Sequence record: OZ035789.1
Source of the DNA: Tequatrovirus BCH953P4
Strand: one strand, 5' to 3'
DNA length: 64,000 bases
Part shown: positions 1 through 33,465 of the stretch, piece by piece
Position numbering within the stretch: the first letter of the stretch is position 1
How the letters are laid out: each line of letters begins with the position of its first letter
The notes under the pieces: generated by a model
What the model saw: the letters and a program-made list of their open reading frames with translations, nothing else
Databases searched by the model: none
What the model was told of the DNA's origin: nothing
Position numbers and translations under genes: made by a program

Positions 1-675
1 GGTAGAATCAGCTTCAAGAGCTACCACATAATTCGCGTGTTCACCTTCAAATTTAGCAGCACCTTGTTTACCTTTTGCCCAGAGCAGAAGTTTATAATTT
101 CCTGGTTGCATTTTCATATTTGCCATATTGATAATGAAATTAAATGTATTTTCACCATCATAATCACCAAGAGTCAAAGAATATTTAACACGGGTCAGAG
201 CAGAATCTTCTACTTTATTAAAACCGTTAATTACGATTTTACCTTCTTTTACTGTGATAGCAATTGTATCAATCTGCAGACCGCGAGATACACGCAACAG
301 CTGTTGAAGGTCTTCAGCTTTAATTTCGGTAACAACAGATGCTACCGGGAATGGAATTGGTTTATTAGGAGCAACTACTGTACTCGGATCGGCTGCTGGC
401 CAAAAAATTGTTGAGCGAGCATCAGCAATTTTAATATTTCCATCTTCTGATTGCGAAATTTCTGCATCATCATTAACTAGAGACAGAATACCGAGAAAAC
501 CGTTCAAATCGTAAATTGCTACATCAAAATCAATAACGTCAGAAATATTTGCTTCCGCATAAGTTGTACCATTAACTGCGCGAGTCATAATAAATTGACC
601 GGATTTAAGCATAATACCGGAGTTAATAGTAGCGAAATTTTTCAAAATATTCAGTGTGTCTTTAGATAATTTCAT
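1..675 (-). CDS. 45: Sliding clamp gp45 (DNA polymerase processivity factor); last few codons lie beyond window start
   Basis: Minus-strand ATG at 675-673 translates [14 protein letters not shown]..., matching remembered T4 gp45 N-terminus; reading frame open to position 1. Confidence 0.85.
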   Translation of the reverse strand, partial: MKLSKDTLNILKNFATINSGIMLKSGQFIMTRAVNGTTYAEANISDVIDFDVAIYDLNGFLGILSLVNDDAEISQSEDGNIKIADARSTIFWPAADPSTVVAPNKPIPFPVASVVTEIKAEDLQQLLRVSRGLQIDTIAITVKEGKIVINGFNKVEDSALTRVKYSLTLGDYDGENTFNFIINMANMKMQPGNYKLLLWAKGKQGAAKFEGEHANYVVALEADST

Positions 676-1559
676 TTCAATTTCCTATTTACATAATAGT
701 TAGACCAGGACCGTACAGCACCCTGATAAGATTCGTCGTTAAACCCATTAGCTACTGCAATTTTACGAAATTTATTATAACTCGGTTTTCCGTAAGCATG
801 CCATAAAGATTTTAATTCATCTTCATGTTCAATCCAAGTTCCTCTAGCTTTAGATTTTCTAAATTTTGATTTGAATTCCGGTGAATTATTTCTAACAGTT
901 GCTTGAATTGAAGCCCTCTGTCTTCTTTCAGCATTATTCCATAACTCTTTTTGAGATTTAGAAATTTTTGATTTTACACTTTCTGAATTCATTATATCAC
1001 TAAACTTTTTAGCATAACTACAATCAAGATATTTCAATTTCATCTTATTTGAAAGTTTAAGCTTTTTCTCATCGGTCCAGTGATTCTTCATTGAATTAGA
1101 TATTTTGTATTTTACGTCAGAACTATGTTTGTAACCTTTACGAATACCAACATAATCGGGCGTAATTTCAGATTGCGAAAGCTTTACAATTTTTCCAGTT
1201 AAAACATTTTTATATGTTCCATATCCTTTAGCGCCAATTAAAGTATTTTCATCTGCGTATGCTTTATTAAAATATTTTATATTACTTTTTGCTTTAACTT
1301 TTAATTGAAAAAATCTTTCCAATTTTCTTGGATCTAATATAGTTTCAGCTAAAATTTTGACGGTATATTTAGTGGTTTTAATAAGCTCAAAATATTCATC
1401 GCTATAACTCGATGACACGCTTCCAGTATAAATCTTTCCAGCTGAATCAATTATATTTGTTCCATCGAAAATTGCGTCAATTTTCGAACCTATATAATAA
1501 CATGGAAAAATATTTTTAGCTTCCCGCTCTGGAAAGCTAATAAGATATACTAAATTCAT
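672..1559 (-). CDS. Putative free-standing GIY-YIG homing endonuclease (seg-like), 295 aa
   Basis: N-terminal LVYLIS...YYIGSK resembles GIY-YIG motif; lysine-rich C-terminal repeats resemble NUMOD3-type DNA-binding modules; ATGA start/stop overlaps with rpbA and gene 45. Confidence 0.55.
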
Positions 1560-1945
1560 TTATTAAAATCAGCTGCGATTGTTTCGGCAACAATTTGAGC
1601 AGCAACAATCAGACGTTCATCTGCATTGCCGCAATATTCATCTTCAAGGCGTTCACCACATGAAGTCATAATAAATTTAGCACCGGCGTTTAGGGATTCT
1701 GTAGTATGTTTGCGCATTAGTTCAATCCATTTATTACTTACTTCACGATCGATAGCTTCATAATACGCATGACGAGCAGGTGCAGATTTAATTTTGTTCT
1801 GAATAACTTCCATTGCGTTATCAGAAAGAGACAAAACCCATGCTCGACGAATTTTATTTTGGTTTTGTGGATTTGATTCAGAACGCACGTGTTTTGGCTG
1901 AATATCTTTTACATCAACAGTATAATTCACAGTAATTTTAGTCAT
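1556..1945 (-). CDS. rpbA: RNA polymerase-binding protein RpbA-like, 129 aa
   Basis: 129 aa ORF with ATG start in the T4 rpbA position between genes 45 and 46; length matches remembered T4 RpbA. Confidence 0.6.
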
Positions 1946-1954
1946 AATACACCT

Positions 1955-2146
1955 TTAGTCATAATAATCAGTGACAGTCCAAGCTTCATTTCTATTGGAC
2001 ATTATTTTTGTATATTCTGCTTTAAATGCATTCCTAAGCATAGATTCAGTAACTATATGCTCTTCATTAGAAAAATTATTTCTCAGAATATATCGTTTTA
2101 TTTCAGGAATAGTTAATAGATGCTGTCCGGTTGAATATTCTGCCAC
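1955..2146 (-). CDS. 45.2: Small early protein, 45.2-like, 63 aa, GTG start
   Basis: ORF track; GTG start preceded by GGAGGAA Shine-Dalgarno; positional equivalent of T4 45.2. Confidence 0.45.
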   Translation of the reverse strand: MAEYSTGQHLLTIPEIKRYILRNNFSNEEHIVTESMLRNAFKAEYTKIMSNRNEAWTVTDYYD

Positions 2147-2156
2147 AATTCCTCCG

Positions 2157-2164
2157 TATAAATA
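2157..2164 (+). promoter_or_regulatory. Late promoter -10 element TATAAATA
   Basis: Exact TATAAATA about 33 nt upstream of the plus-strand HNH endonuclease ATG at 2198, followed by AAAAGGA Shine-Dalgarno. Confidence 0.55.
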
Positions 2165-2197
2165 TGTTTATCACTCGCTGTATCAAAAGGATATGTT

Positions 2198-2914
2198 ATG
2201 AATTATAAACTAATTTATGAAAAGTTAATCTCTAATGCTAAATCTCGAAAACTTGATTGCTATACTGAATCTCATCACATTATACCACGCTGTTTAAATG
2301 GCAGCGATGATGCTTCAAACTTAGTAGATTTAACACCAGAAGAGCACTATGTAGCTCATCAACTTTTAGTAAAAATTTATCCTTCTGAACCAAAATTAGT
2401 ATATGCTGCTAACATGATGACAGTTTCCACGAAATACGCTAAACGCAACAATAAAACTTTCGGTTGGATTCGTCGTAAACTCTGGGAAATAGAAAAGAAC
2501 AAAGAATTCTCCCAGGAGACACGAAAGAAAATGTCTGATGCAGTAGCTAATAAAGCAAGACTAACTTGTCCTCATTGCGGTAAGTCTGGATTAAGCGGGA
2601 ATATGAATCGTTGGCATTTTGATAACTGCCCAAATCACCCTAATCCTAAAGTTAGACCACCAATGTCTAAAGAACACAGAAATAATATCTCAAACGGGCT
2701 TAAAGCAATCGTTCTTGAAGAAACATCTTGCGAATTCTGCGGAATGATAGGCAAGAAATGCGTTATCGCAGCGCATAGAAATTTCTGCAAGAAAAATCCA
2801 AATGGACGCAAGAAAACTGAAAAGACTGGTACTTGCGTCCATTGTGGTAAAGTTACCACTTTCGGAAATTTATCAAGATGGCATAATGATAACTGTAAAT
2901 ATAAACCTAGCTAA
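2198..2914 (+). CDS. HNH homing endonuclease, mob family, 238 aa, with three tandem Cys-rich zinc-finger-like repeats
   Basis: HHIIPRCLNGSDDASNLVDLTPEEHYVAH motif nearly identical to the mobB-like ORF at 7496-8290; repeats CPHCGK...WHFDNC, CEFCGM...HRNFC, CVHCGK...WHNDNC; opposite strand to flanking early genes. Confidence 0.8.
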   Translation: MNYKLIYEKLISNAKSRKLDCYTESHHIIPRCLNGSDDASNLVDLTPEEHYVAHQLLVKIYPSEPKLVYAANMMTVSTKYAKRNNKTFGWIRRKLWEIEKNKEFSQETRKKMSDAVANKARLTCPHCGKSGLSGNMNRWHFDNCPNHPNPKVRPPMSKEHRNNISNGLKAIVLEETSCEFCGMIGKKCVIAAHRNFCKKNPNGRKKTEKTGTCVHCGKVTTFGNLSRWHNDNCKYKPS

Positions 2915-4595
2915 TCTTAGCTAAACTAAATCTACCAACTTTTTCCATCTGAATATGCTGACCATATTCTTGTGGGTCATGGTCTTTATGCGAAATTATG
3001 AAGAAGTTGGTATCCTTCAAACCATCTAAAATTTTAGCTACATTTTTAATACCTTCAGCATCAAATGCACCGTCATACACTTCATCAAGAAATAAACAAC
3101 TTATTTTAACACCTGAAACTTTTTCAGCAATATCACGCCAAGTAAATAAAAGAGCAATATCAATTCGTGCTTTTTCACCTTGACTGAATGAAGCATAACT
3201 AAAATCTTCACGACCACGGGATTTAATTGTCTCATTAAATTCTTCATCTAATGTAAACACATAATCCGCTTCCATTATTTTAAGATAATGGTTAATCTGC
3301 TTATTAAATAATGGAATGTACTTTTTAATAATAGCACCTTTAATACCAGAATCTTTGAGCATATCAGTCAAAATTCCTCGGTGGTATTTTTCCATTACTA
3401 AATTAGTTTTTGTCTTAACAATTTTATCAAGTTCTTCTTGAAGCAGTGCTATTTCATCAGCATGGTCAATAAACTCAGAAGATGCTTTTTCTATAGCCGC
3501 TTTAACCTTTTTAGCTTTATCTACTGCTGCGATCAAAGATTGCTTTTTATTGCGAATATCATTTGCCAACGACTGTTGGGTTTTAATATTATCTCGGTAT
3601 TCATCAACAAGAACTTTTAAATTATCACGATGTGTTGAAAGCTGTTCAAACGAATGCGTACATTCAGAAACTTTATCTTTAATTTTAGAAACAACTTTAT
3701 CACCGGAACTCAATTGTGACAAACAGGTTGGACATAATCCACCTTCGTGATACATATTAATGACTTTATTATACGAGTCAATTTTTGATTTAATTAAAAA
3801 TGCTTCTTGACCGATTTTATTAAATGCATCAGTTGGGTCTTCGTCTAAAACAATATTAACTAATCTTTCATTAGCTTCTTCTATTTCCGATTTTAGCGTT
3901 CTAGCTTCTTTTGCCAAATCATCATACATATTTTGCAGACGAGTAAGGTTGTCACCCGTTAATTTTTTCTGGCGTTCAACGTTATCATTATATATTTTAA
4001 TTTGTTGGATAATACTATCTTTTTTAACATCAAGCACTTGGTTCTGCGAATTTAATTCGCGTATTAGTGCTTTATTAAGCTTATCCATTTCAGCTAATGT
4101 TCCTACCTCAAGCAGGTCTTCCACAAGCTTTCTTCGCGCAGGGGTCGACAAACCCATGAAAGGGGTATACCCTGCTGTACCAAGGACAACAATCTGCTTG
4201 AAACTGGCATATGACATTCCGATAAGCTGTTCAAATTCTGCTTGGAAATCTTTACTGCTGGCAGATTCATTAAGACGTGTACCGTTAACGGTGATTTCGA
4301 AAACGTTTGGTTTTTGTCCTCTTTTGATATAGTACTTTTTCTCATCATATTCCATCCACAGTTCAACTAAAAGTTCTTTCTTATTTGTGCTGTTTATTAA
4401 TTGACCTTTCTTTACATCACGAAATGGCTTGCCAAAAAGCCCAAACGTGATGGCTTCTAGCATAGTAGACTTACCACCGCCATTTCGTCCAGTAATAAGA
4501 GTTTTTTGAACCTTATCTAATTGAATGTCAATCCCATTTTGACCAACTGACATTATATTTTTATATTTTACTCTATTAAGTTTAAAATTCTTCAC
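2907..4595 (-). CDS. 46: Recombination nuclease ATPase subunit gp46 (Rad50/SbcC-like), 562 aa, GTG start
   Basis: Walker A GRNGGGKST near N-terminus, long coiled-coil middle, CPTC zinc hook-like motif; AAGGAA Shine-Dalgarno before GTG; size matches T4 gp46. Confidence 0.9.
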   Translation of the reverse strand: MKNFKLNRVKYKNIMSVGQNGIDIQLDKVQKTLITGRNGGGKSTMLEAITFGLFGKPFRDVKKGQLINSTNKKELLVELWMEYDEKKYYIKRGQKPNVFEITVNGTRLNESASSKDFQAEFEQLIGMSYASFKQIVVLGTAGYTPFMGLSTPARRKLVEDLLEVGTLAEMDKLNKALIRELNSQNQVLDVKKDSIIQQIKIYNDNVERQKKLTGDNLTRLQNMYDDLAKEARTLKSEIEEANERLVNIVLDEDPTDAFNKIGQEAFLIKSKIDSYNKVINMYHEGGLCPTCLSQLSSGDKVVSKIKDKVSECTHSFEQLSTHRDNLKVLVDEYRDNIKTQQSLANDIRNKKQSLIAAVDKAKKVKAAIEKASSEFIDHADEIALLQEELDKIVKTKTNLVMEKYHRGILTDMLKDSGIKGAIIKKYIPLFNKQINHYLKIMEADYVFTLDEEFNETIKSRGREDFSYASFSQGEKARIDIALLFTWRDIAEKVSGVKISCLFLDEVYDGAFDAEGIKNVAKILDGLKDTNFFIISHKDHDPQEYGQHIQMEKVGRFSLAKIS

Positions 4596-24753: not shown

Positions 24754-25211
24754 TCAGCCTTATATTCAATAACAGGACATACTTTAGCTTTACGAGCTTT
24801 TAAAAATTCGACGATAATAGATTTCTTGGGTTGAATAGGAGGTAAACCTTTATACGCCCTATCAATATTTTCTACGTGTAAAGCATAATCCTTTTTCCAT
24901 TTATAATCTTTATATTTTTCACGCAAATGTGCAGGAATAACAAATGAACCGATAATAAGTAAAACAACCAAAAGCGCAAGTATAAATGCTGATGGAAGCA
25001 AAGTCCATAAACTACCAAAAATAAGCCAACGTTGTAGGCTTTCTGCACAAATAATTGTTAGCCCTACGAGTATAGCACATCCAAAAATAGAAACGAAAAA
25101 TGTAGGAATGGCAATAGACCAAAAATATGCGCATAGTGTCTTAGGTCGTTGCCATTCATCGTTAAACAATTTGAATAATTTATAGTGCCAAGAGTTTTCA
25201 TTAATAATCAT
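24750..25211 (-). CDS. Integral membrane protein, 153 aa, 2-3 predicted helices
   Basis: ORF track; ATG start; hydrophobic segments. Confidence 0.55.
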   Translation of the reverse strand: MIINENSWHYKLFKLFNDEWQRPKTLCAYFWSIAIPTFFVSIFGCAILVGLTIICAESLQRWLIFGSLWTLLPSAFILALLVVLLIIGSFVIPAHLREKYKDYKWKKDYALHVENIDRAYKGLPPIQPKKSIIVEFLKARKAKVCPVIEYKAE

Positions 25212-25213
25212 AA

Positions 25214-25735
25214 TTATCCTTTCATTGAAGGCGTAACAGTTGTTAAATACTTAATCATAGCTTCAGCTTCTGATTTTGATAATGAAATTTCTCCATTGTT
25301 TTGACGAATAGAAATAAAATCCGGATGACGGTCACCACCAGCTTTTAAAACACACATATAAGTATCAACTTCATCTTCAATATTTGAAATGATTGAAGCA
25401 GTTCCACATGAATGCGGTTTTTGATAAATCAATGCAGCTTTTCTTCCGCCATTTGACTGTTCATAAACTTTTAATACATCAAACAAATCACTTCTTTTAT
25501 CAATAGCTAAAATGTTATTTTCATCTTCAATGTTAAATCCTTCGGATACTTCATAAAGTGTCACCCATAAATCGCCAATATCAATAACAGCGTTCACCTT
25601 TCCATGACTTTCAAGAGCATGACAAATTTTCTTGATTTCGTCATAACTCATTTTAATAATATCATCTCCTTGACTAAGAAAGATGTCATTTTTAAATTCA
25701 ACACGAATTAAACCGCTTCCACTTGAAATAAACAT
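25214..25735 (-). CDS. Hypothetical protein, 173 aa (tandem paralog A)
   Basis: C-terminus SIRQNNGEISLSKSEAEAMIKYLTTVTPSM resembles the C-terminus of the adjacent ORF. Confidence 0.55.
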   Translation of the reverse strand: MFISSGSGLIRVEFKNDIFLSQGDDIIKMSYDEIKKICHALESHGKVNAVIDIGDLWVTLYEVSEGFNIEDENNILAIDKRSDLFDVLKVYEQSNGGRKAALIYQKPHSCGTASIISNIEDEVDTYMCVLKAGGDRHPDFISIRQNNGEISLSKSEAEAMIKYLTTVTPSMKG

Positions 25736-31750: not shown

Positions 31751-32052
31751 TAATATTTTTCCTCTGGTTGGAACACAGCACGACAAGCCCACATACTGGC
31801 TTCTTTGAGTTTCGTTTTAGCAATAGTTAACTGATCGAGGCTTTCGGCATAATTCTTCGCGAATTCACAGTCTTCACAATTATCTAGTGCTTCCCAGAAT
31901 TCATCGTATAAAGCATCAAAGATAAGTCCTAAACGAACTTCAGCGTCTTTGATGGCATTCACTTTACCGATTTTCTTTTCAGTATGCGGCTTATAACCCT
32001 TAATATCTTCAATCATATTTGACTTCCTCACCAGTACATAAATCATATTCAA
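31750..32052 (-). CDS. Hypothetical protein (vs.4 position); possible Acb2-like cyclic-nucleotide sponge by position only
   Basis: ORF track; start may be an internal Met; assignment rests on gene order. Confidence 0.35.
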
Positions 32053-32230
32053 CTAAACGAATAGGTTCATGAATGCCATATCCCTGAACAGAAATTTCTG
32101 TAGTAGGATAAATTCCATCAATATCACCCATGTTCCATGCTTCGTTAAATTGCTGTTCGCCTGAATTACTAAACCATTCGGCAAAAGCATTTAGCACATC
32201 TTCAGAACCTTCAATAATTATCTTTGCCAT
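32009..32230 (-). CDS. Hypothetical acidic protein, 73 aa
   Basis: ORF track. Confidence 0.45.
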   Translation of the reverse strand: MAKIIIEGSEDVLNAFAEWFSNSGEQQFNEAWNMGDIDGIYPTTEISVQGYGIHEPIRLVEYDLCTGEEVKYD

Positions 32231-32592
32231 TACAAACTCTCGGTAAAGGTACGAGCGATAACATCGCGCTGCTGTTCCGGAGTCAGAGAGTTAAAGCGAA
32301 CTGCATAACCGGATACACGGATGGTCAGCTGCGGATATTTTTCCGGATGCTTAACTGCATCTTCCAGAGTTTCACGACGCAGAACGTTAACGTTCAGGTG
32401 TTGACCACCTTCAATTTTAACTGTAGGTTGTGTTTCAATTTCAATTTCACGGGCGTGCAAACCATAGAAAATTTCTGGGTCTACAAAAGAGTCCTCTTTA
32501 AAGGTTTTAGAGACAATAATTCGCGCTTGAATACCATCTTCAAAATAAATAGTACCTTTATGCGTGCCTTCAAGAATTTGATATGCTTTCAT
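32230..32592 (-). CDS. Autonomous glycyl radical cofactor-like protein (GrcA/YfiD-like), 120 aa
   Basis: C-terminal …[55 protein letters not shown] contains the RVSGYAV glycyl-radical motif of PFL/GrcA. Confidence 0.8.
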
Positions 32593-32599
32593 ATAAACC

Positions 32600-32980
32600 T
32601 CAATTAGAAAATAAATTTATCCAAGATTGTTCTTTAATTAAAAATGGCTCAGAATCATATGCCATTAAACTCTGTGTGATTAGTCCTTTAAAAGGCCCAT
32701 CAATAAATTCCATGGTAAAATATGGAATTTTATTCATTAGCCGTGCATTAGGAGCAGTACATAAAACTCTGCATCCTTTGAATACACCCTTTTGTAATTT
32801 GTATTGCTTGGGATAAAATTCGCTCAAAATGTTATTATTCGCTAAAATTTCAAAATGATTCACCAATTTATTTTTAATAGTTTTTGGTGAAAAATAGAGA
32901 TATTCGAAAAGCTGTGCGTCTGTCATCATTGCATTCCGATTACGAAAAACTGTGGACGAGTAATACCACCAATGCAACAT
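32600..32980 (-). CDS. Hypothetical protein, 126 aa
   Basis: ORF track. Confidence 0.5.
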
Positions 32981-33465
32981 TTACTATTGCAACAGTACTG
33001 TACAGTGTCAATATGAGCATCATAAATCTTATCCATATCAGGAGATTTGACAGGCTCATCAATTATATACAAAATTCGCGAAAGCGATAAACCTCTGAAC
33101 TTGCTTCCTTTATTACCAATAAAACTGCGCACAGAATCAGTAAATAAACGAAAACGTATATCATCATTAGAATAACGCGAAAATTCCTTTTTAATGTCAT
33201 CTGCGGAATTTTTAGCATAAACTGAAGTATTAGAAAGAACAATAACTGTTCCGCCATCATACAACCAGTTAGCAGCGAAGTTAGTCACAGCAATTGATTT
33301 ACCGGATTGACGTCCACCATCTATACGAAGTGTGCAGTACTGTTTAAGTAAGTCTTCAAATGATAGGATATAATCGTTTTTACAAATTTCTTCTACTCTA
33401 GCATCAGAATGGTGTGTAAAAGCATTCATCAGGGATAGATAAGGACCAGTTAAAAATGTTCTCAT
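32926..33465 (-). CDS. P-loop-containing protein, 179 aa
   Basis: GGRQSGKS Walker A-like motif. Confidence 0.5.
   Translation of the reverse strand: MRTFLTGPYLSLMNAFTHHSDARVEEICKNDYILSFEDLLKQYCTLRIDGGRQSGKSIAVTNFAANWLYDGGTVIVLSNTSVYAKNSADDIKKEFSRYSNDDIRFRLFTDSVRSFIGNKGSKFRGLSLSRILYIIDEPVKSPDMDKIYDAHIDTVQYCCNSKCCIGGITRPQFFVIGMQ

Follow-up and report, generated by a model that had tools for sequence, protein, structure and literature searches.

A 64,000-nucleotide stretch of DNA from Tequatrovirus BCH953P4 (sequence record OZ035789.1; the whole stretch is called the window here) carries an open reading frame (ORF) of 295 amino acids between rpbA and gene 45, which codes for the sliding clamp. 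This ORF is very probably a free-standing homing endonuclease gene (HEG) that combines a SegG-type GIY-YIG nuclease with a MobD/SegA-type DNA-binding region. In T4 and T2, the same junction is a 55-bp non-coding spacer without a gene, in agreement with the original prediction, which expected no gene at this position in T4. That prediction had proposed a GIY-YIG homing endonuclease inserted between conserved genes, and the proposal is now supported by homology to the SegG nuclease domain, a sporadic distribution, and intact flanking genes. The ORF itself, which starts with ATG on the minus strand, was called by the ORF finder and read in the bases, and its reality is further borne out by the constraint on its protein sequence and by orthologues at the same locus in other genera. 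The gene and the parts of its product are as follows.

672..1559, minus strand: predicted free-standing SegG-like GIY-YIG homing endonuclease gene, based on the ORF listing, PHROG 655, 23 near-identical Tequatrovirus copies, and the ratio of nonsynonymous to synonymous polymorphism (pN/pS)
1254..1559, minus strand: predicted SegG-type GIY-YIG nuclease domain, residues 1-102, with conserved Y5, P19, Y22-I23-G24, K26, Y44, S47, E81, F97, and N98
1146..1223, minus strand: three-stranded beta module, residues 113-138, with invariant columns Y116, T121-G122, V125, L127, and Y136-V137 and with strands E113-118, E124-128, and E136-138 in the structure model
852..1136, minus strand: Lys/Ser-rich helical repeats, residues 142-236, with one NUMOD3-like unit at 142-158 and a degenerate, MobD-like remainder
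693..821, minus strand: C-terminal helical domain of the SegA/MobD type, residues 247-289, with the motif LW..GKP...F.K.A...GF...SY

The assignment of the N-terminal domain follows from comparisons with the T4 seg, mob, and I-Tev genes, which we translated from the T4 record. Residues 1-102 of the ORF product are 39% identical to residues 1-100 of SegG over 103 columns (BLASTP, E 8e-15). A profile search had been named as a check on the original prediction; the family profile matched SegG (hhalign 99.9%, E 2.7e-33), the nuclease domain of SegA-E (94%, E 2.4e-8), and I-TevII (87%, E 3.9e-6), with no match to I-TevI (1.8%). Among PHROGs, the ORF matched phrog_655, labelled ‘homing endonuclease’ (E 3e-32), and its residues 1-103 matched phrog_7504 (E 3.4e-17). 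An indexed protein search with the ORF returned just 6 relatives; an exhaustive hidden Markov model search with residues 1-141 returned 274 clusters at 50% identity. Across 140 family members, N98 is the sole fully invariant column, and Y5, P19, Y22, I23, G24, K26, Y44, S47, E81, and F97 are each at least 90% conserved. The ‘GIY’ motif is VYL (residues 4-6), the Y5 of which lies in strand E2-8 of the structure model and aligns with the Y of ‘Y.Y.ITN’ in SegA-E, and the ‘YIG’ motif is the near-invariant Y22-I23-G24, aligned with the YIG of SegA-E and I-TevII. The near-invariant E81 and the invariant N98 correspond in the alignment to the conserved Glu and Asn of SegA-E and, judging from motif order and spacing, would be the counterparts of E75 and N90 of I-TevI.

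The C-terminal region has another origin. Its profile shows no homology to the C-terminal half of SegG (hhalign 0.2%), while residues 154-289 align with residues 110-250 of T4 MobD (hhalign 92.6%, E 4.5e-7) and residues 247-282 with residues 176-211 of SegA (hhalign 88.6%, E 2.6e-6); BLASTP also relates the 247-289 domain to SegA 176-207 (E 0.002). As this half is not SegG-like but MobD/SegA-like, the protein reads as a chimera of a SegG-type nuclease of ~100 residues and a MobD/SegA-type DNA-binding region of ~190 residues. Within the latter, residues 247-289 are presumed to form the sequence-specific DNA-binding domain, and the beta module at residues 113-138 is probably a linker element that contacts DNA. 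The NUMOD3-like, lysine-rich repeats of the original prediction were confirmed in part. The Lys/Ser-rich helical repeats are there, and NUMOD3 (PF07460) is matched by 96 of the 140 family members at E up to 0.01, but the match of the 295-residue protein to this Pfam model, at residues 142-158, is sub-threshold (10.4 bits against a gathering cut-off of 20.4, E 0.65), so its own repeat units are degenerate.

The gene is sporadically present at one locus among close relatives, between flanking genes that remain intact and overlap it by 4 nt, which is the pattern that characterizes HEGs. By megablast, the ORF is found at 97.4-99.7% identity in 23 phage records, or 4.5% of the 506 Tequatrovirus records that match the flanks; in the other ~480 records, the match span is 825 nt shorter than the query, and these records therefore lack the ORF. 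In Mosigvirus, ~10 of 154 records have the HEG and RB69 does not. Full-length relatives that are 55-62% identical occur in the Mosigvirus phages AV114, G2285, and JM17 (the copies in G2285 and JM17 are split) and in Gaprivervirus VR26. Two metagenome loci, L006 and L009, carry genes that are 98% identical to those of AV114 and VR26, and a third, L011, represents a fourth lineage not assigned to any genus. At all orthologue loci examined in the three genera and in L011, rpbA and gene 45 flank the HEG, whose 3′ end overlaps gene 45 through an ATGA. Pairwise pN/pS ratios of 0.06-0.17 among six intact copies show that purifying selection acts on the protein. Of eight copies examined, two are frame-broken by a single-base insertion, those of ESh24 (locus L018) and EC121 (locus L019). 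Both insertions are in or beside T-runs and the ESh24 record is flagged UNVERIFIED, and they may represent true decay or sequencing errors.

The junctions were placed by alignment to six HEG-less genomes, a comparison of the rpbA-45 region across T4-like phages of the kind that the original prediction had put forward. The window aligns collinearly with T4 from 31.9 to 96.2 kb, and the elements that surround the insertion are listed below.

1556..1945, minus strand: rpbA, the upstream neighbour (Pfam Phage_RpbA, E 6.5e-42), with 45.2 (Pfam Gp45_2) just past it
1..675, minus strand: gene 45 (sliding clamp), the downstream neighbour, 96.7% identical to T4 31929-32613 and labelled as sliding clamp in all matching records; the window holds its first 225 codons, and the remainder is beyond the window start
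1556..1562, minus strand: upstream junction, with AAA TGA as the final codon and stop of rpbA in place of the CGT TAA of HEG-less phages
681..686, minus strand: gene 45 Shine-Dalgarno AGGAAA, in the last ORF codons (AAT AGG AAA, N-R-K), at the right limit of the inserted block
774..798, minus strand: candidate MotA-dependent middle promoter of gene 45 inside the ORF, TGCTTAC-12 nt-TATAAT, its TGCTT 124 nt ahead of the gene 45 start codon
643..669, minus strand: patch of gene 45 (codons 3-11), recoded and hypervariable, which encodes TLNIL where T4 has TTALL

Both ATGA overlaps that had been described were confirmed in the bases. At the upstream end, the ORF ATG (1559..1557) overlaps the rpbA stop TGA (1558..1556; minus strand ...AAT AAA TGA), and downstream the ORF terminates in a TGA (674..672) that overlaps the gene 45 ATG (675..673; minus strand ...AAA TGA). 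The upstream overlap was created by the change from CGT TAA to AAA TGA at the end of rpbA. On the left, homology with HEG-less genomes ends after ...GATTTTAAT, and on the right, homology with the HEG-less spacer of T4 and T2 restarts at AGGAAATT, the gene 45 Shine-Dalgarno, which encodes N-R-K of the ORF here. The HEG takes the place of ~51 nt of the rpbA|45 junction, comprising the terminal codon of rpbA with the stop that follows and the greater part of the 55-bp spacer.

The replaced spacer contains TTGCTTTA-12 nt-TAAAAT, with a start site at T4 32626, which is the start of the mapped T4 middle promoter P45 (Table 1 of PMC2988021). Since this start is inside the replaced spacer, the insertion removed P45. 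A substitute may be embedded in the ORF: the motif at 774..798 fits the MotA promoter consensus, (a/t)(a/t)(a/t)TGCTTtA at 12 +/- 1 bp from TAtaaT (PMC2988021), and the other three HEG lineages have (A/T)(A/T)TGCTTTA-12 nt-TATATT at the same distance, with differing spacers. An embedded promoter for gene 45 is plausible on these grounds but not shown, and two observations speak against it. A loose MotA pattern occurs 28 times in the window, where chance alone would give 14.8 matches, so that any one match is weak evidence, and the motif overlaps the conserved codons W-x-A-L/Y-G-K-P-x-Y, so that protein constraint could explain its conservation. The ribosome-binding site of gene 45 is also within the ORF, and AATAGGAAA is kept in all four lineages despite differing flanking codons. 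A comparable arrangement is described in a review (PMC2988022) for segG, which contains promoters of gene 32 and, according to the review, is retained more readily for that reason.

For the HEG itself, the lack of a Shine-Dalgarno before the ORF ATG in any of the four lineages points to low-level translation at the ATGA overlap by coupling to rpbA termination. The T4 late promoter TATAAATA is represented in or before the ORF by one-mismatch matches only, none of them convincing, and a generic sigma-70 promoter scan gave no matches above those in shuffled sequence. One further element lies within the 5′ end of the gene.

1516..1540, minus strand: terminator-like hairpin in ORF codons 7-15, a 10-bp stem followed by AAAAATATTTTT (consensus scan; -12.9 kcal/mol, z -2.0)

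Comparable 5′ hairpins are present in L009 (z -2.5) and L011 (z -1.4), with none in L006. A conserved terminator was rejected because the z values range from -1.4 to -2.5, the structure is missing in one lineage, and its register differs; the evidence is also weak for a possible role as an attenuator of endonuclease expression.

Taken together, these features suggest how the element could behave. The HEG would be transcribed within the 46-45.2-rpbA-45 polycistronic message and translated by termination-reinitiation. During a mixed infection, the enzyme would cut HEG-less genomes near the junction, the likeliest site being the first 36 nt of the T4-type gene 45, and T4 recombination would repair the break with the HEG-positive genome as template, transferring the gene, flanking markers, or both (co-conversion). 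Its recoded patch and its missing spacer would shield the HEG-positive genome itself. Expression of gene 45 would be kept by the MotA-type promoter, the Shine-Dalgarno, and the ATGA overlap, and since these signals are embedded in the 3′ end of the ORF, clean loss of the element would be costly.

Several results weigh against the identification of the ORF as a homing endonuclease gene. No GIY-YIG model in Pfam or NCBIfam matched the ORF, although matches with E values as high as 1 were admitted, so that the GIY-YIG-like N-terminus of the original prediction stands on the visible VYL...YYIGS and on SegG homology but is not recognized by these models; NCBIfam gave no match at all. Foldseek with either structure model found nothing significant, and a phmmer search of PDB sequences with the ORF returned only noise. 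No conserved Arg is present at residues 25-60, where the canonical catalytic Arg (R27 of I-TevI) is expected; the near-invariant K26 sits on the His of ‘YIG.H’ in SegA-E. Our literature searches found no publication describing this gene or its orthologues. Finally, an element that is actively homing would be expected at a frequency higher than ~5%. As regards the Arg, T4 SegG, an active free-standing GIY-YIG endonuclease located between genes 32 and 59 that targets gene 32 (PMC2988022), has the same YYIGSK without the canonical Arg, and this residue is therefore missing from the whole SegG branch and not just from the 295-residue protein.

The missing Arg could also indicate that the endonuclease is retired or domesticated, that is, no longer cutting and kept as the only nearby promoter and ribosome-binding site of gene 45 or as a DNA-binding regulator. 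The low and stable frequency of the gene in two genera (~5%) and the gene 45 signals embedded in the ORF would fit such a role, as would its divergence between genera (51-63%), which is of the same order as that of gp45 (60-79%) and RpbA (42-66%) and looks like long vertical residence. We nevertheless consider this unlikely. The pN/pS ratio is ~0.1 over the whole protein and not just over the 3′ 130 nt that bear the signals; the putative catalytic residues Y5, Y22, E81, and N98 are invariant or nearly so across 140 relatives; SegG is active without the same Arg; and the frameshifted copies in viable phages imply that the protein is dispensable. The orthologues at the same position in three genera, with a divergence comparable to that of their neighbours, might instead suggest that the ORF is no mobile insertion but an accessory gene ancestral to the Tevenvirinae, with a function other than that of a nuclease, which T4, T2, and most of their relatives have lost. 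This is very improbable, as it requires many independent precise deletions, each restoring the same 55-bp spacer with a functional P45, and this spacer is essentially identical in T4, T2, slur14, ELT1, and HY03. In addition, the protein is built from modules common to the known homing endonucleases SegG, MobD, and SegA, and presence or absence within genomes that are 97-98% identical fits gain by gene conversion. The mismatch between rpbA and gp45 divergence among genera was also considered as a boundary of HEG-driven recombination and was rejected, because HEG-less RB69 has the rpbA allele of HEG-positive AV114 (98%).

If the element is an active endonuclease, the question becomes where it cuts, and the recoded patch in gene 45 is a candidate target or immunity site. 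HEG-positive and HEG-less alleles show 13 differences in the first 36 nt of gene 45 and 1.7-1.8% in the rest. The divergence of the patch is found independently in two pairs, one in Tequatrovirus (the window and T4) and one in Mosigvirus (AV114 and RB69), with a binomial P of ~1e-14 each, and the Ser-4 codon changes from TCT to AGY in the HEG-positive alleles of Mosigvirus, Gaprivervirus, and L011. None of the 427 Tequatrovirus records with the T4-type patch carries the HEG; the 78 records with the TLNIL-type patch include all 23 that do. The patch is not unique to HEG-positive genomes, since the HEG-less phages slur14, ELT1, HY03, and RPN226 also have TLNIL; it is therefore not diagnostic and may mark the background that the HEG entered, which tells against a role in homing. 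The only fixed differences between HEG-positive and HEG-less genomes are the last codon and the stop of rpbA. Three further HEG-linked sites, all in the first 18 nt of gene 45, recur otherwise only in RPN226, and additional polymorphism is seen in HEG-positive genomes across the final 100 nt of rpbA. Co-conversion tracts that vary in length could have produced this marker pattern. The distribution of the patch fits the T4-type patch being the target and TLNIL the immunity allele, HEG-less TLNIL phages then having resistant alleles, possibly through one-sided co-conversion; it also fits a patch that is only the genetic background that the HEG entered.

RPN226 (locus L016) has HEG-linked markers at nt 7, 9, and 18 of gene 45 and a variant 56-bp rpbA|45 spacer, tatagaattaaattctc...ggaaattaa. 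It may be like the background that the HEG first entered, or a recombinant.

One possibility, which we put forward tentatively and regard as rather less probable than not, is that the target is codons 3-11 of the T4-type gene 45 allele. The patch would then be an immunity allele that travels with the HEG, even between genera, and the ~55 HEG-less phages with the patch would be products of one-sided co-conversion, cut and repaired without acquiring the gene. The resulting resistant population would cap the element at ~5%, and the element would guard against its own deletion by carrying a replacement for P45 and the ribosome-binding site of gene 45. If true, this would be a natural, database-visible case of a homing endonuclease creating the resistance alleles that limit its own spread. 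There is a substantial chance, not far below even, that an active enzyme has its target outside the patch, in the spacer, in rpbA, or hundreds of bp away as with SegG, and that the patch is a linked background polymorphism. Free-standing T4 endonucleases often cut hundreds of bp from their own genes (PMC2988022), and both the HEG-less genomes with the patch and the polymorphism at the end of rpbA would be in line with a target elsewhere. Such a target does not explain why a similar recoded patch, including the TCT-to-AGC switch at Ser, accompanies the HEG in Mosigvirus, Gaprivervirus, and L011, nor why all 427 records with the T4-type patch lack the HEG.

With regard to known systems, the closest is T4 SegG (gene 32.1). 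The two proteins share a homologous nuclease domain and the motif pattern MN.VY..F..R......P.YYIGSK...F..G.I.D..GK.Y..S ... E ... YFN. Both genes are free-standing and immediately upstream of an essential replication gene, and in both the promoter of the downstream gene appears to be inside the coding region, as published for segG and gene 32. However, the C-terminal halves are unrelated, SegG has 210 residues, and it is encoded at the 59|32 locus instead of rpbA|45, so that the target differs too. Moreover, the activity and marker exclusion of SegG were demonstrated experimentally, whereas the activity of the present protein is predicted. The DNA-binding regions of T4 MobD and SegA align with its C-terminal region, but the nuclease domain of MobD is HNH and that of SegA is the SegA-E type of GIY-YIG. 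PHROG 655 also unites the protein with a Mob-like HNH protein encoded next door. The intron-encoded I-TevI, which has GIY-YIG, NUMOD3, and helix-turn-helix parts, is more distant: the catalytic domains have no similarity at the sequence level, and the 295-residue protein has no zinc finger and is not encoded in an intron.

The element is therefore like the T4 seg genes in all testable respects, being free-standing, sporadic, modular, located beside an essential replication gene, and provided with embedded host signals. The combination of a SegG nuclease with a MobD/SegA tail and the rpbA|45 locus are particular to this element; the kind of element is already known, and the understanding of homing endonucleases is unchanged by these findings. 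What they add to the T-even set is a SegG-type endonuclease with a predictable target region near the essential sliding-clamp gene, together with a clean natural example of Seg/Mob module shuffling, of a displaced P45 apparently replaced by an embedded promoter, and of a recoded patch in an essential neighbour. They also bear on annotation, as the SegG branch of GIY-YIG enzymes goes unrecognized by Pfam in its entirety. Some GenBank records already recognize the gene: it is a ‘homing endonuclease’ in F13076, SholemSchwarzbard, the RefSeq record of SHBML-50-1, and PaulHMueller, a ‘putative DNA endonuclease’ in VR26, and a ‘24.6 kDa protein in Gp32-Gp59 intergenic region’, the old name of SegG, in Lv5cm. 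In most records, it is a ‘hypothetical protein’ or is unannotated (GiZh). As a whole, the family of 274 clusters has Lys where SegA-E have His, is without the canonical Arg, and is covered only marginally by Pfam, with PF19835 (SegE_GIY-YIG) weakly matched by 9 of 140 members (best E 3.3e-4); it seems to be a GIY-YIG subfamily that lacks a model of its own.

A second free-standing endonuclease gene, a Mob-like HNH ORF of 238 amino acids on the plus strand (2198..2914), is located 640 bp from the HEG, between 45.2 and 46 and on the strand opposite to these neighbours. Its product is 44% identical to T4 MobB (E 6e-29), also matches MobE, MobD, and MobC, and has C-terminal zinc-finger-like repeats of the form CxxC...W(H/N)xxNC. 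The same insertion is found in RB32, PhiZZ30, and Mosigvirus G2285, among others. At window positions 2141..2926, which correspond to T4 33244-33315, it replaces the T4 45.2|46 spacer, the site of the mapped middle promoter P45.2 (start site 33257, ATGCTTTA-12-TATAAT); the window shows no MotA box ahead of 45.2. In this phage, therefore, the two mapped middle promoters of this neighbourhood, P45 and P45.2, have both given way to endonuclease genes. Next to the edge of the inserted HNH gene, the start of gene 45.2 (1955..2146, minus strand) has also changed, from ATG after GGAGGAAAAAC in T4 to GTG after GGAGGAATT.

Compared with T4, the window is without mobC, nrdC.4, and segC/5.3, the positions listed for T4 differences being about 12500, 18940, 24755..25716, and 48616. 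The T4 mobD position is occupied by two unrelated ORFs of 153 amino acids, with hydrophobic stretches, and 173 amino acids. Given the differences at mobC, segC/5.3, and mobD, the homing endonuclease complement of this phage differs from that of T4 at several loci.

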